A DNA stretch of 64,000 nucleotides from an uncultured Bacilli bacterium (GCA_947627355.1 CANQVX010000005.1:21341-85340), one strand, 5' to 3'. Counted from the first letter of the stretch, positions 341-63,151 are shown. Notes: generated by a model from the letters alone, not told the origin. Translations and numbers: made by a program.

Positions 341-653
341 AGTTATTAATACCATTCATTTTGCGATTAAATCTAATAATATCGTATATGGAGAACAATT
401 AATTAATTCTATCCGCCTTAAAAAAGTTTATGTTGTTTTACTAGCGTCTGATGCTAGTAATCAAACCATAAAGAAAATAAAAGATAAATCGATCTTTTAT
501 AACATTCCAGTTTATGAAATATTTGATAAAGAAACATTCTTTGATATCTTTCATAAACCATTAGTGGCATTTGGTATAAAAGATCTGAATCTATCGATAA
601 AATTGATAAAAAATCTGCAAGAAGGAAGTGAGTCGCATGAAGAAAAAAATTAA
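330..653 (+). CDS. ylxQ: L7Ae-family ribosome-associated protein YlxQ
   Basis: 107 aa with the L7Ae-like core [30 protein letters not shown]. Overlaps the ylxR stop and the infB start, as expected in the nusA-infB operon. Confidence 0.75.
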
Positions 654-2493
654 ATCCAACAAAAAGGAACATTTAATTTCTAATGTTAGTTCTGCAAATC
701 ATTTATCAAATAAGATTGAAGCTCGTGAAAAACTTAACCATGGTATTCTTGTTTATTCTAGTCCATTAACAGTTACTGAACTAGCTGAAAAGTTAGGAAA
801 AGCTCCAGCTGAAATTGTAAAAAGTTTATTTTTACTCGATAAAATCATGGTAACTGTTAACACCACTTTAAGTGATGAGTTAATCGAACTTGTTTGCTTG
901 AAGTATGATTACGAAGTTAAAAAAGAAAAAGTAGTTGAACTTGAAAACTTCGAAAATCTAGAAATTAAAGATGATCCAAAAGACTTGAAAGAAAGACCTC
1001 CAGTAGTTACTATTATGGGCCATGTTGACCATGGAAAAACAACCTTACTTGATGCCATTCGTAAATCAAGAGTTGTCGCTGGTGAATTTGGTGGTATCAC
1101 TCAACATATTGGTGCTTACCAAACCACAGTAAAAGGTAAAAAGATTACTTTTATTGATACTCCAGGACATGCCGCATTTACCGAAATGAGATCAAGAGGT
1201 GCTCAAATCACTGATATTGTTATTATTGTAGTAGCTGCTGATGATGGTGTTATGCCTCAAACTAAAGAAGCTATCGACCATGCAAAGGCTGCTAAGGTTC
1301 CAATTATAGTTGCTATTAATAAGATTGATAAGCCTCATACCAATATTGAAAGAATTAAATCTGAACTTACTGATTTGGGTTTAGTTCCTGAAGAATGGGG
1401 TGGCGATACTATCTTTAAAGAAATATCAGCTAAAAATGGAACAAATCTAGATGAACTATTAGAAACCATCTTAGTTGTATCAGAAGTTGCTGAATTAAAA
1501 GCTAATCCTAAACGTTATGCTTTAGGTACTGTTGTTGAAGCAAAACTTGATAAAGGTAGAGGCCCAATTGCTACTTTGTTAGTTCAAAATGGTACTTTAA
1601 GAGTTGGTGATTGTATCGTCTGTGGTGTTGCTTTTGGTAAAGTAAGACAATTAAAAGATGATATGGGAAGACTTCTTCAAGAAGCGGGCCCATCAATGCC
1701 TGTTGAAGTATCAGGATTACAAGAAGTTCCCGTTGCTGGCGACAAATTCATGGCTTTTGAAAACGAAAAGATGGCTCGTGAAATAGCATTCAAAAGAAAA
1801 ACTGAAAAAGAATCTAAAGATAGAATTGGTACAACCGCAAGAAAGCTTGAAGATTTAATTAAAGAATCTAAAGAAGGCGAAAAACAAATAATCAATGTTA
1901 TTATTAAAGCCGATGTTCAAGGTTCTGCTGAAGCAATTAGAAATGCTTTAGAAAAATTAAAGATTGAAAATGTTGAAGTTAATGTCATTTCTAGTCAAGC
2001 AGGTGCTATTACTGAATCAGATGTCTTACTTGCTAGTGCTTCAAATGCTATCATTTATGGTTTCAATGTTAGACCAGATGCTATGATTCGTAAAAAAGCA
2101 AGTGAAGAAAACGTTGATATTCGTTTACATAATGTTATCTATGCCCTTACTGAAGAAATGGAACTTGCTATGAAAGGTAAGTTAAAACCTATCTTACAGG
2201 AAGTAGTAACAGGACAAGCAGAAGTTAGACAACTTTTCAAAGTGGGAAAGGTCGGAACGATTGCTGGAAGCTATGTTACAATGGGTGTGATAAAAAGAGA
2301 TTCTTTAGTTCGCTTAATCCGTTCTGGTATTGTTGTTTATAGTGGTAAACTAGCATCCTTAAAGAGATTCAATGATGATGTTAAAGAAGTTAAAGAAGGC
2401 TTTGAATGTGGTATGATGATTGAAAACTACAACGATATCAAAGAAAAAGACATCATTGAAGGCTATGTCATGGAAGAAGTTAAAAGAACTTAG
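637..2493 (+). CDS. infB: translation initiation factor IF-2
   Basis: GTPase motifs [17 protein letters not shown] and NKIDK, plus the IF-2 C-terminal domains. Start set at ATG 637, 8 nt after AGGAAG, rather than the GTG at 628 used by the ORF track. Confidence 0.97.
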
Positions 2494-2505
2494 GGGCGTG
2501 ATTTT

Positions 2506-2844
2506 ATGAACGAAAAAAGAACAGATCGTTATTCAAGTTTAGTTCAAAGAGCCGTTTCTGATATCGTTCAATTTAAAGTAAAAGCTAATCATGATATAGG
2601 ATTTGTAACTGTAACTAATGCTAGAGTTACTAATGATTTATCATATGCTTATATTTATGTTAGTATCTTAAACGATGATAATCATGAAAAATTTGCTGCT
2701 TTAGATAAATTAAAAGGTTATATTAGAACTGAATTAGCTCATGAAGTTAAAATGCGTAAAACACCTCAAATAGTTTTTAAAATTGATGATTCTATCGACA
2801 ATTATTTATCTATTGATAAGTTGTTAAAAGAATCTAAGAAATGA
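2506..2844 (+). CDS. rbfA: ribosome-binding factor A
   Basis: 112 aa. The N-terminal RxxRVxxxIxxEVSxII-type pattern (RYSSLVQRAVSDIVQF) and the position directly after infB fit RbfA. Ends with TGA in an ATGA overlap with the next gene. Confidence 0.9.
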   Translation: MNEKRTDRYSSLVQRAVSDIVQFKVKANHDIGFVTVTNARVTNDLSYAYIYVSILNDDNHEKFAALDKLKGYIRTELAHEVKMRKTPQIVFKIDDSIDNYLSIDKLLKESKK

Positions 2845-61041: not shown

Positions 61042-62670
61042 ATGAAAGAAAAATGGTGGAAAGATGCTGTTATTTATCAAATCTATCCTCGTAGTTTTAA
61101 AGATGACAATAATGATGGTATTGGTGATTTAAAAGGAATTATTTCTAAATTAGATTATTTACAATTTCTAGGTATTGATGCTATATGGTTATCACCTATT
61201 TATGAATCACCTATGGAAGATAATGGTTATGATATCAGTGATTATCATAAAATTGCACCTGAATTTGGTACCATGGAAGAAATGGATACTTTAATTGCTG
61301 AAGCTAAAAAAAGAAATATTAGAATTATCATGGATTTAGTAGCAAACCATACATCAAAAGAACATAAATGGTTTAAAGAAGCTTTAAAAGGAAAAGATAA
61401 TCCTTATCATGATTTTTATTATTGGAGTAATACTAAAGATAATAAAGAAGCTTCCTTTGGTGGTAGTTCTTGGGAATATGTTAAGAAATTAGATGAATAT
61501 TACTACCATTACTTTGCTAAAGGTCAAGTTGATTTAAACTGGACTAATCCTGAAGTTAGAAAAGAAGTAGCAAACATTGTTAACTGGTGGCTTGATAAAG
61601 GAGTTGCTGGTTTTAGAATGGATGCTATTGAATTGATTGGTAAAGATTTGAAAAATGGTATCTTTGCTAATGGTCCTAAGATTCATGAATATTTAAGAGA
61701 ATTAAATCAAAATTCATTCGGTTTAAAAGAAGATTCTATTACGGTGGGCGAAGGTTGGCCAACACCAGAAATTGCTTTGGATTACACTTTACCTGAAAAT
61801 AAAGAATTAGATATGATGTTTCAATTTGAAAGTGCTTGTAGTATTTATTTACCTGATAATGGTCTTGGTAAGTTTGATCCACTACCAATTGATTTAGTTA
61901 GATTAAAAGCCATCTTTAATAAATGGCAACAAGCATTACATAATAAATCTTGGAATGCTTTATTTTGGGAAAACCATGATTTACCTAGAAGTGTAACTAG
62001 ATTTGGTGATGATAGATTCTATCGCAAAGAAAGTGCTAAAGCTTTAGCTATCATGTTATTTTTACAACAAGGAACACCATTTATTTATCAAGGTGAAGAA
62101 ATTGGGATGACCAATGCTTATTTAAAGAAATTATCTGATTATCAAGATATTGATGCTTTAGGTAATTATCAAGCCCTAGTTGTTGATAAAAAACTAACAA
62201 CACCTGAAAAATTCTTAGAAGGATTACAAAAAGGTAGTAGAGATAATGCTAGAACTCCAATGCAATGGGATGATAGCATTAATGCTGGTTTTAATGCAGG
62301 TAAAACTCCATGGCTTAAAGTAACTCCTAACTATAAACAAATCAATGTTAAACAATGTATCGAAGATAAAGATTCAATCTTATATACTTATAAACATTTA
62401 ATTGAACTTAGAAAGTCTAATGAATATCGTGATGTCATTCATTATGGTGACTTCAAATTAGAACTTCCTGATGATCCTTATTTATTTGTTTATGAAAGAG
62501 AATACAACAATCAAAAGTTATTAGTTGTTATCAATTTCGATAATGCTGAACATGAAATCACTTTAAATAAAAAACCTAAAAAGATTTTGATTAGTAATTA
62601 TAAGACTTCAACCTTAAATCTTAAAAAACAAACATTACCTCCTTATGAAGCAATCGTTTATGAATTATAA
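61042..62670 (+). CDS. GH13_31 alpha-glucosidase (oligo-1,6-glucosidase-like)
   Basis: Motifs WWKDAVIYQIYPRSF, DLVANHTS, GFRMDAIELI, GEGW and FWENHDLPR. Start at the ATG after TAGGAGG. Exact substrate (isomaltose, trehalose-6-P or sucrose isomers) cannot be told by eye. Confidence 0.9.
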   Translation: MKEKWWKDAVIYQIYPRSFKDDNNDGIGDLKGIISKLDYLQFLGIDAIWLSPIYESPMEDNGYDISDYHKIAPEFGTMEEMDTLIAEAKKRNIRIIMDLVANHTSKEHKWFKEALKGKDNPYHDFYYWSNTKDNKEASFGGSSWEYVKKLDEYYYHYFAKGQVDLNWTNPEVRKEVANIVNWWLDKGVAGFRMDAIELIGKDLKNGIFANGPKIHEYLRELNQNSFGLKEDSITVGEGWPTPEIALDYTLPENKELDMMFQFESACSIYLPDNGLGKFDPLPIDLVRLKAIFNKWQQALHNKSWNALFWENHDLPRSVTRFGDDRFYRKESAKALAIMLFLQQGTPFIYQGEEIGMTNAYLKKLSDYQDIDALGNYQALVVDKKLTTPEKFLEGLQKGSRDNARTPMQWDDSINAGFNAGKTPWLKVTPNYKQINVKQCIEDKDSILYTYKHLIELRKSNEYRDVIHYGDFKLELPDDPYLFVYEREYNNQKLLVVINFDNAEHEITLNKKPKKILISNYKTSTLNLKKQTLPPYEAIVYEL

Positions 62671-62695
62671 AAACTAACTTCGGTTAGTTTTTTTT
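62671..62695 (+). terminator. rho-independent terminator
   Basis: AAACTAAC / GTTAGTTT stem, TTCG loop, then a T-run. Confidence 0.85.
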
Positions 62696-62731
62696 ATAAA
62701 GTGCATAATAAAAGTGAAACGAGTTGATGTT

Positions 62732-63151
62732 ATGTGGATCTTTTATGCCTTTTTGTCGGCAATTTTTGCAAGTTTAATGACTGTATTTATGAAGATTGGA
62801 CTTAAAAATATTAACCCTCATGTGGCAACAGCTATTAGAACTAGTATGGTTGTTATCATGTGTTGGATATTAGTATTTATAACTAGAAAAACAAATACCA
62901 TTAAAGAAATAAATAAAAAAGAATGGCTTTACTTACTACTTGCAAGTATTGCCACCTTTGGTACTTGGACATTTTATTTCTTAGCATTAAAAACTGGTAG
63001 TGTTAAAAATGTAATGGTAATCGATAGACTTAGCATTGTCTTTGCTATTATCTTATCTTTTTTTATTTTAAAAGAAACTATAACCATTAAAACTGTCGTT
63101 GGAATGGTGGTTTTTTTACTAGGAGCCTTTTTATTAGTTTATTATCCGTGA
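62732..63151 (+). CDS. small EamA-domain (DMT superfamily) membrane transporter
   Basis: About 139 aa with 4-5 TM segments. Single EamA-like repeat (FYAFLSAIFASLMTVFMKIGL...). The start is uncertain; the ORF track uses GTG 62714. Confidence 0.6.
   Translation: MWIFYAFLSAIFASLMTVFMKIGLKNINPHVATAIRTSMVVIMCWILVFITRKTNTIKEINKKEWLYLLLASIATFGTWTFYFLALKTGSVKNVMVIDRLSIVFAIILSFFILKETITIKTVVGMVVFLLGAFLLVYYP

Follow-up and report, generated by a model that had tools for sequence, protein, structure and literature searches.

A hyper-abundant 28-bp DNA motif in an uncultured gut bacterium of the Bacilli: a probable genome-wide recognition site and a possible landing site of an HU/IHF-type protein

To our knowledge, hyper-abundant and non-polar words which lie within genes have so far been explained only as the uptake signals known from two families of proteobacteria. 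The statistical hallmarks of one of these, the uptake signal sequence (USS) of Haemophilus, are used here for comparison (PMC7811141). We also compare with the site of the architectural protein IHF: its consensus is WATCAR-N4-TTR with an A-tract in the other half, it is kinked at two points about 9 bp apart, of which the closer to TTR is 6 bp away from the central T of that element, and HU has a high affinity for DNA bearing flexible sites 9 bp apart (bioRxiv 10.1101/382655, PMC5829579). The present analysis concerns a stretch of 64,000 nucleotides (the window) from an uncultured rabbit-gut bacterium, in which the 9-mer ATTCTATCG and its complement CGATAGAAT are strongly over-represented, and the motif of about 28 bp to which this word belongs. 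The motif is very probably a clade-specific, double-stranded and non-polar recognition site, which is selected or driven at the level of the DNA and is present in the core chromosome only.

The source genome (G000) is a 1.57-Mb draft of 32 contigs with 28.5% G+C, and the window is G000:C5:21341-85340. Based on its IF-2 and on DNA matches, G000 was assigned to an uncultured genus around Candidatus Caccosoma (Bacilli, near Erysipelotrichaceae). The congeners are a rabbit-gut bin (G003), Ca. Caccosoma faecigallinarum (G002), two human-gut bins (G001, 98% complete, and G004) and G005 (88% complete). By nucleotide identity G000 pairs with G003 (76.7%) and G005 with G004 (75.1%). Gene positions are our own calls of the longest open reading frames (1,330 ORFs, 91% coding). 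Word counts were compared with dinucleotide shuffles in the window, with Markov models of order 1-5 in the genome, and with a shuffle of synonymous codons within each gene, which leaves every protein and the codon usage of each gene intact. The motif matrix was iterated and has 32 columns; matches of at least 14 bits are counted as sites, and the reversed genome sequence serves as the control. G000 was scanned whole and the congeners as 400-kb samples. The leading strand of the draft was inferred from local gene strand and GC skew. An Rfam scan of the window gave no matches.

In the window, ATTCTATCG and CGATAGAAT have 14 matches, eight on the + strand and six on the - strand, whereas the shuffles average 0.38 and never exceed 3. 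The positions reported in the first-pass annotation are all correct, and the overlapping pair at 11200 and 11207 is one palindrome, which gives 13 loci. The 7-mer core, whose excess had also been noticed, is found in 23 copies (2.64 expected), and both copies of the 15-mer AACGATAGAATGTTC (24774 and 38875) are present. Across G000, ATTCTATCG is the most over-represented 9-mer, with 152 copies (74 + and 78 -) against 9-26 expected; GATTCTATCG leads the 10-mers (110 copies, 2.6 expected) and CGATTCTATCG the 11-mers (61 copies, 0.3 expected). The excess first seen by eye is thus strong genome-wide, with ratios far from 1 under the Markov as well as the codon-shuffled nulls.

When the 152 copies of ATTCTATCG are aligned the flanks are conserved, with Y-G preceding the word, R-Y-A-A-W-T-T-T following it and, 7-10 bases upstream, a patch rich in A, and they become random beyond about 28 bp. 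The extended consensus GATTCTATCGACAAWTT, suspected earlier, is real, and the conserved region is in fact longer. The second most over-represented 10-mer, GATTTGACCG (36 copies, 0.5 expected), has the same right flank as the ATTCTATCG family; counts of GATT-NNNN-CG define a variant family Y-K-A-Y, in which TAT and GAC are the preferred forms. The matrix converges on AAWW-N4-YG-WTTYTAY-CG-RYAAWWTT, a quasi-palindrome of about 28 bp centred on TYT, and finds 968 sites in G000 against 30 in the reversed genome, or about one site per 1.6 kb. The CG is near-invariant (99%), the left CpG is TpG in a third of the sites, and TCGA or ATCGAT is found in many copies. Exactly 9 bp separate the two YpG steps, and the A/T tracts lie about one helical turn from the centre. 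As a side observation, ATCGAC is common to the motif form TCTATCGACAA, a Corynebacterium word (GCTTATCGACG) and a verrucomicrobium word (AAGATCGACA), which may be due to chance or to a common kind of reader.

Concerning the level at which the motif is maintained, the shuffling of synonymous codons removes most of it from the genes: 785 genic matrix sites compare with 65-78 after shuffling (an 11-fold excess), 113 genic copies of ATTCTATCG with 15-24, and 77 genic copies of GATTCTATCG with 4-9. Codon usage is overridden in permissive peptide contexts. Where D-S-I is followed by G, the motif codons are used in 34% of cases against 4% expected from codon usage; where I-L-S is preceded by G, (G)ATT-CTA-TCG with the rare codons CTA and TCG is used in 33% against 0.2%; and where D-R-I is preceded by C, the motif codons are used in 85% against 11%. 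The first-pass annotation had argued for selection on the DNA rather than on a peptide, and this is borne out by the codon-aware null, the overridden codon usage and the intergenic enrichment described below. The frames which it read in the window are also correct (D-S-I-D at 2788 and 4132, I-L-S at 3662 and 7813, F-Y-R at 62014), as are the antisense copies at 31584 and 59051 and the intergenic copies at 22346 and 58279, both of which are in convergent spacers.

The frames are unevenly used: 70% of the sense sites share one frame and a second frame holds 84% of the antisense ones, one antisense frame, which contains TAG, is nearly empty, and the favoured frames encode common residues. Such a skew is expected of a DNA signal constrained by coding. 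The matrix sites comprise 370 sense, 423 antisense and 175 intergenic ones; there is no sense bias, and the motif is therefore not an RNA signal. The excess of sense copies noted in the window (9 of 11) does not extend to the genome, in which the exact word has 68 sense and 45 antisense copies and the full motif shows the ratio given above. Base-pair frequencies between the symmetric arms equal the expectation for independent columns in genic and intergenic sites alike. A hairpin or cruciform, suggested by examples at terminators with a CG-closed stem and a 7-nt loop, was rejected on this lack of covariation across the arms.

It is hardly credible that the excess is an artefact of a conserved peptide, of codon usage, of a repeated gene fragment or of a small mobile hairpin repeat. 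The strong frame skew would agree with this, and the most frequent translation, D-S-I-D-K-F, would make a plausible helix peptide; against it stand the 11-fold excess over the codon shuffles, the use of rare codons, an intergenic share of sites (18%) twice that of the genome (9%), the random flanks, the absent covariation, and orthologous places which differ by substitutions and not by insertions. Repetitive extragenic palindromes, miniature inverted-repeat transposable elements and other hairpin repeats were ruled out as a class by the 82% of sites that are genic, by pairing at chance level and by the substitution differences between orthologues. The remnant of a dispersed micro-repeat, one of the origins first proposed, is likewise contradicted by these point substitutions and by the random flanks beyond about 28 bp. 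About 1,000 copies of the motif are found through the core chromosome, and therefore some DNA-binding factor must read the chromosome genome-wide.

The distribution of the sites differs between the parts of the genome. Their density is 0.55 per kb in genes, 0.70 in divergent spacers, 1.17 in co-directional spacers and 4.0 in convergent spacers, with a mean of 0.62. In the convergent spacers the motif is mostly a single copy which adjoins a terminator hairpin. Distances from sites to start codons are broad and none is preferred. Based on these locations, it is very unlikely that the sites are operators bound by a global regulator of transcription such as CcpA, CodY, Spo0A or CtsR. The site is quasi-palindromic and of the size expected for a helix-turn-helix dimer, and it resembles in part the Spo0A box (TGTCGAT compared with TGTCGAA) and the CtsR heptad (GGTCAAA in the GAC variant). 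However, the great majority of sites are genic, the divergent spacers, which bear the promoters, are near the genomic mean, and conserved regulators cannot explain a motif found in three of six genomes. The likenesses to Spo0A, CtsR, TnrA and sigma-H sites were set aside as partial matches, none of which fits the restriction to one lineage. Among the protein-recognition roles first listed, the uptake-like signal and the genome-wide protein site remain the leading readings, and the promoter-bound global regulator does not fit the site locations. The DnaA box was also considered: TTATCGACA agrees with the consensus TTATCCACA at 8 of 9 positions, and was rejected on the pattern of conservation, as the invariant G of the motif is placed where the box has its conserved C, and the invariant C where the box is variable.

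Looking at orientation, 395-409 sites are co-oriented and 462-476 anti-oriented with the locally dominant gene strand or the GC skew (45:55 for 871 sites); the exact 10-mer gives 50:48 and the intergenic sites 72:90. A polar signal oriented to replication, of the kind of Chi, KOPS (FtsK-orienting polar sequences) or SRS (SpoIIIE recognition sequences), had been among the suggested roles, and the over-representation within genes on both strands, together with the co-orientation with genes hinted at by the window alone, would suit it. With these ratios, and with a motif which, unlike the known polar words, is long, quasi-palindromic and AT-flanked, we give this role almost no credence.

The sites are grouped in clumps (coefficient of variation of the spacing 1.36) and leave long deserts. 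The phage-like contig G000:C15:1-28052, which encodes large terminase, portal, major head and tape-measure proteins, has no site (17 expected), and nine further small contigs (C22, C24-C26, C28-C32) also have none; these amount to 54 kb in all, for which about 33 sites are expected. Other deserts are the ribosomal-protein operon, the regions with IleRS, RelA and AspRS, and giant surface-protein genes, among them the 2,224-residue ORF of the window. In the window there are three motif-free stretches of 8-9 kb: 12428-21260 (which covers the 2,224-residue ORF), 33201-41770 and 41782-49969. The motif separates core from mobile DNA in these metagenome bins and could help to sort mobile or mis-binned contigs.

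The window has 44 matrix sites and three exact 9-mers below 14 bits. The loci of the exact word are as follows, in window positions:

2787..2797, + strand: core TGATTCTATCG, 9-mer at 2789; D-S-I-D in an rbfA-like ORF of 112 residues (2506-2844); 26.8 bits.
3661..3671, + strand: core CGATTCTATCG, 9-mer at 3663; sense I-L-S with the rare codons CTA and TCG; 25.5 bits; the G003 orthologue reads ATTTTATCG, a synonymous difference.
4131..4141, + strand: core CGATTCTATCG, 9-mer at 4133; sense D-S-I-D; 19.7 bits; the orthologous place in G003 lacks the motif.
7812..7822, + strand: core CGATTCTATCG, 9-mer at 7814; sense I-L-S; 20.1 bits; CATTCTATCG is retained in G003.
11198..11217, both strands: palindrome ATTCTATCGATAGAAT, two overlapping opposed copies (11200 + and 11207 -); 16.4 and 21.9 bits.
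22346..22356, - strand: core TGATTCTATCG in a convergent intergenic spacer, adjoining a terminator hairpin; 22.4 bits.
24776..24784, - strand: exact 9-mer only, sense in a - strand gene; poor flanks, below 14 bits; within the 15-mer AACGATAGAATGTTC.
31584..31594, - strand: core CGATTCTATCG, antisense in a + strand gene; 17.1 bits.
38877..38885, - strand: exact 9-mer only, in sense orientation close to the 3' end of a - strand gene; the 15-mer AACGATAGAATGTTC recurs here.
58277..58287, + strand: core TGATTCTATCG with ACAAATTT, in a convergent spacer directly 3' of the T-run of a terminator hairpin; 23.3 bits.
59049..59059, + strand: core CGATTCTATCG, antisense in a - strand gene; 25.3 bits.
59364..59374, - strand: core CCATTCTATCG, sense in a - strand gene; 17.8 bits.
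62016..62024, + strand: exact 9-mer only, sense, F-Y-R in a treC-like gene.

The remaining matrix sites are:

586..605, both strands: variant copies TGAATCTATCG (+) and CAATTTTATCG (-); 21.8 and 15.8 bits.
9771..9781, + strand: variant core CGCTTTCATCG; 22.8 bits.
11798..11808, + strand: variant core TGATTCGACCG, the GAC type of the family; 19.8 bits.
22319-22329 and 22377-22387, - strand: two weaker copies in the same convergent spacer as 22346; 16.3 and 15.6 bits.
24235..24245, - strand: variant core TGATTCGACCG; 25.4 bits.
41771..41781, + strand: core CGTTTCTATCG, the top-scoring site of the window; 29.1 bits.
54697..54707, - strand: variant core CCTTTCTATCG; 22.3 bits.
55696..55706, + strand: variant core CCAATCTATCG; 24.4 bits.
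Other sites of at least 14 bits, by start of the 11-bp core and strand: 1731+, 8374-, 11062-, 12417-, 21261-, 23891+, 26264+, 26924+, 26933-, 28287-, 31878+, 32198+, 32518-, 33190+, 49970+, 50819-, 51077+, 51489+, 53480+, 56002+, 60782+, 62748+, 63097-.

Elsewhere in the genome, a CRISPR-like array is found at G000:C1:16875-18900 (- strand), with 30 repeat copies containing GTTCTAATACCCTAA at a period of about 66 bp.

Among relatives the motif has a limited distribution. Exact copies of the 10-mer number 110 in G000, 19, 12, 5, 3 and 2 in the five congeners, and 0-11 in 35 other relatives, and degenerate patterns rank the genomes as the exact 10-mer does. The densities of matrix sites per kb are:

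G000, whole genome: 0.62 at >=14 bits, 0.42 at >=18 bits.
G003, 400-kb sample: 0.38 at >=14 bits, 0.14 at >=18 bits.
G005, 400-kb sample: 0.17 at >=14 bits, 0.06 at >=18 bits.
G004, 400-kb sample: 0.06 at >=14 bits, 0.003 at >=18 bits.
G001, 400-kb sample: 0.035 at >=14 bits, 0.008 at >=18 bits.

G004, G001 and G002 are at background, so the motif is present in three of the six sampled genomes of the genus; the search in related genomes which the first-pass annotation called for finds it in G003 and G005 too, more weakly than in G000. The excess in G005 amounts to 24 sites of at least 18 bits against one in the control (400 kb). About 283 kb from 78 other genomes, with the G003 and G002 loci excluded, contains no matrix site. 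Retraining the matrix on G003 yields essentially the matrix of G000, and therefore there is no shift of dialect; no other dominant word was found in the 400-kb samples of G003 and G001. Since G005 has the motif and its nearest sampled relative G004 lacks it, the distribution is patchy and not simply nested.

The region of the window is syntenic with G003 at 75% identity, and at the places of the G000 sites G003 differs by substitutions which are often synonymous (CTA TCG compared with CTT TCA or TTA TCG), with the protein unchanged. For 162 G000 sites aligned without gaps, 60 (37%) are also sites in G003, compared with 26 +/- 3.4 (16%) when the observed mismatches are placed randomly within codon phase. 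For G001 the corresponding fraction is 2 of 51, for G004 6 of 96 and for G005 14 of 102. Conversely, among 36 aligned G005 sites, 20 have no counterpart site in G000, and G005 has therefore acquired some independently. Point mutations, for the most part at silent codon positions, create the motif; its copies are retained more often than expected under neutrality, and they turn over.

The distribution bears on two further explanations. The word could be a by-product of methylation and biased repair, an origin which has been suggested for the cyanobacterial palindrome HIP1, or of very-short-patch repair: the invariant positions are a CpG, the left CpG has become TpG in a third of the sites, and TCGA or ATCGAT is present in many copies. 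The motif is, however, 28 bp long and not a simple palindrome, and the left CpG decays to TpG and not to CpA, contrary to deamination on two strands. No Vsr homologue was found in five genomes, and genes for 5-methylcytosine (m5C) methyltransferases (PF00145) are present in G000, G003 and G004 and absent from G005 and G001. This distribution mismatches that of the motif, and an m5C/Vsr cause was therefore rejected; the methyltransferase genes give no support to the methylation-target role raised at first either, and we regard an origin through methylation as highly improbable.

Alternatively, the motif could be a tag of self DNA, spared or preferred by a defence, repair or recombination system, and then neither an uptake signal nor the site of a nucleoid reader. 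Its absence from the phage contig and the nine further small contigs would agree with such a tag, and the patchy distribution (present in G005, absent from G004) suggests an accessory reader which was gained or lost. On the other side, no candidate system was found, and the operon of G000 with an m5C methyltransferase and MORC does not track the motif. The only precedent known to us, Chi, is short, polar and read on single-stranded DNA, unlike the motif. A self-DNA tag is therefore rather unlikely in our judgement.

The reading which we favour, with a probability of about 0.3, is that the motif may be the preferred site at which a nucleoid architectural protein of the DNABII (HU/IHF) kind lands on the DNA and bends it. 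At each copy such a protein would kink and wrap the DNA, with the copies acting collectively on the chromosome and not gene by gene. Collective behaviour is indicated by the density of 4.0 per kb in convergent spacers, the lack of a preferred start-codon distance and the 37% of sites kept in G003. The right half of the motif, TATCGR-N4-TT (TATCGR-YAAW-TTT), matches the IHF consensus at 7 of 9 specified positions, with G and not A at position 5. In the putative register with lambda H', the A-tract, TATC and TT coincide. AAWW at -10..-7 falls at the place of the H' A-tract, and the register of the YpG steps relative to the H' kinks is uncertain by 1 bp. Firmicutes have HU and not IHF.

A concrete candidate for the reader would be HU2, an extra HU-type paralogue, for which the probability is lower still. 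G000 has three DNABII genes. HU2 is the second canonical one, with the classical RxGxNPxTGE arm, and is found in both of the richest genomes, at G000:C5:667-939 (+), about 20.4 kb upstream of the window, and at C4:88616-88888 in G003 (81% identical). The insertion lies between an mntR-like gene and one for a membrane protein; HU2 has a strong ribosome-binding site, a -10 box and a terminator of its own and is absent from the same locus in G001, G002, G004 and G005. No homologue of more than 50% identity was found in 55 other relatives; among the 61 genomes searched, HU2 was found in G000 and G003 only. The nearest other homologues (56-63% identity) are on conjugative elements, where they adjoin genes for relaxases and for type IV secretion; this suggests that HU2 may have originated as a DNA-bending accessory factor of a conjugative element. 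Among the papers listed by our literature searches, we found no report of HU genes beside Gram-positive relaxases.

Two other DNABII-type proteins of the genus were recorded. At 33611-34354 (-) the window encodes a protein of 247 residues, in which a DNABII (HU) domain at the N-terminus is followed by an extension of about 160 residues; it is conserved in all five genus genomes searched (219-255 residues). The ordinary HU (G000:C8:33008-33310, with orthologues in G001, G003, G004 and G005) has the divergent arm RTAVIPLSNKK compared with the usual GRNPxTGE, and a 10-residue acidic tail is found only on the G000 copy.

Several points weigh against an architectural protein as reader, and against HU2 in particular. 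G005 has the motif and sites of its own, and no HU2 was found in its 88%-complete assembly, in which the syntenic locus is empty; HU2 can thus not be the sole reader. G000 and G003 are closest relatives, so any gene private to both would correlate with the motif. HU2 is HU-like and not IHF-like by sequence, HU proteins are usually non-specific, and the contigs of conjugative elements which carry HU2 homologues show no excess of the motif. The likeness to IHF was noticed post hoc among about ten known motifs compared, its match fails at position 5, and its kink register is off by up to 1 bp. Also, the near-invariant CG (99%) suggests direct reading of the bases, which minor-groove binders do poorly. 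We know of no instance in which the IHF sites of E. coli are hyper-abundant words written into genes.

The main rival reading is an uptake signal of the USS kind, whereby the uptake machinery prefers fragments with the motif and conspecific recombination spreads it as a molecular drive, with no benefit required of any single site. Every statistical hallmark of the Haemophilus USS is found here (PMC7811141). There is one site per about 1.6 kb; a core is flanked by AT tracts; both orientations occur equally, and the frames are limited by coding cost. Sites are fewer in the phage contig, the ribosomal-protein operon and the regions of aminoacyl-tRNA synthetases, that is, in acquired DNA or constrained genes. 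Gene ends and terminators are enriched in sites, some of which form overlapping inverted pairs. New sites originate through point substitution, and there is turnover between sister species. ComEA, ComEC and DprA are intact in G000, and a Tad-type pilus locus is present.

On the other hand, neither an ATPase of the ComGA type nor a pilin receptor was found, and the only ATPase of the T2SSE family belongs to the Tad-like locus. G001 and G004 have the same ComEA/ComEC/DprA set without the motif, and G001 has no other hyper-abundant word. The competence genes were in fact discarded as a discriminator, since ComEC, ComEA and DprA are found in all five genomes with or without the motif. The clumped spacing also counts against this reading. 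The rationale of a kinkable signal in Haemophilus is passage through the outer-membrane secretin, which is inapplicable to a Gram-positive cell. We know of no uptake specificity in Firmicutes, and no report of one was found among the papers listed by our literature searches. An uptake signal is, on balance, possible and somewhat less probable than the site of an architectural protein.

The Tad/Flp-like pilus locus lies at G000:C10:52150-55100 and encodes a CpaF-type ATPase (the only T2SSE-family ATPase of G000), two TadB/C-like membrane proteins and a Flp-like pilin of 57 residues; it is followed by SpoIVFA/SpoIVFB-like genes. In G004, matches to the T2SSE ATPase are split over two contigs as short frames.

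Taken more broadly, there is a real possibility, somewhat short of even, that a Gram-positive gut lineage evolved, or acquired from a conjugative element, a sequence-specific, genome-wide DNA reader, either an IHF-like HU paralogue or an uptake receptor linked to the Tad pilus, and that about 1,000 silent positions of the core chromosome were rewritten so as to bear the 28-bp bend site of this reader. If so, no comparable system of self-DNA words would have been described in Firmicutes before. An architectural reader would mean that a nucleoid protein can reshape silent sites genome-wide; an uptake receptor would give the Gram-positive bacteria their first example of uptake specificity. The steep gradient within the genus (0.62, 0.38, 0.17, background) makes the reader identifiable by comparative genomics, with few candidate genes expected, and the long, structured motif narrows the kind of reader.

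Among the known systems, the USS of Pasteurellaceae and the DNA uptake sequences (DUS) of Neisseriaceae share with the motif a clade-specific short core with weaker AT-rich flanks at one per 1-2 kb, occurrence on both strands, no polarity, the cheapest genic frames, enrichment at gene ends and accumulation by point substitution (PMC7811141). They differ in that the host here is Gram-positive (Erysipelotrichales-like Bacilli) and no ComG-type pilus ATPase was found in it. Also, USS and DUS are family-wide with dialects, whereas the motif is found in three of six species of one genus with no dialect in the motif-free sister; its spacing is clumped, and its terminator copies are mostly single and not inverted pairs. 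HIP1 (GCGATCGC) of cyanobacteria is likewise hyper-abundant, CG-containing, lineage-specific and genic in all frames, but it is a perfect 8-bp palindrome tied to methyltransferases, whereas the motif is 28 bp long, asymmetric and does not follow methyltransferase genes. The stoperators of Cluster A mycobacteriophages and the site sets of Noc, SlmA and MatP resemble the motif as many dispersed, partly genic sites of one protein which act collectively. Those sets have tens of sites, which are palindromic or orientation-biased, and their readers are known; the motif has about 1,000. A Noc-like second ParB was rejected here, as there is one ParB per genome and none in G001; in that genome no ParB_N (PF02195) match was found, and the other five genus genomes have one Spo0J-like gene each. 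Concerning the IHF site (lambda H'), the near-invariant CG and the quasi-palindrome, which suggests a homodimer, are found only on the side of the motif; the two sites may have in common an asymmetric extent of about 30 bp and two flexible pyrimidine-purine steps 9 bp apart.

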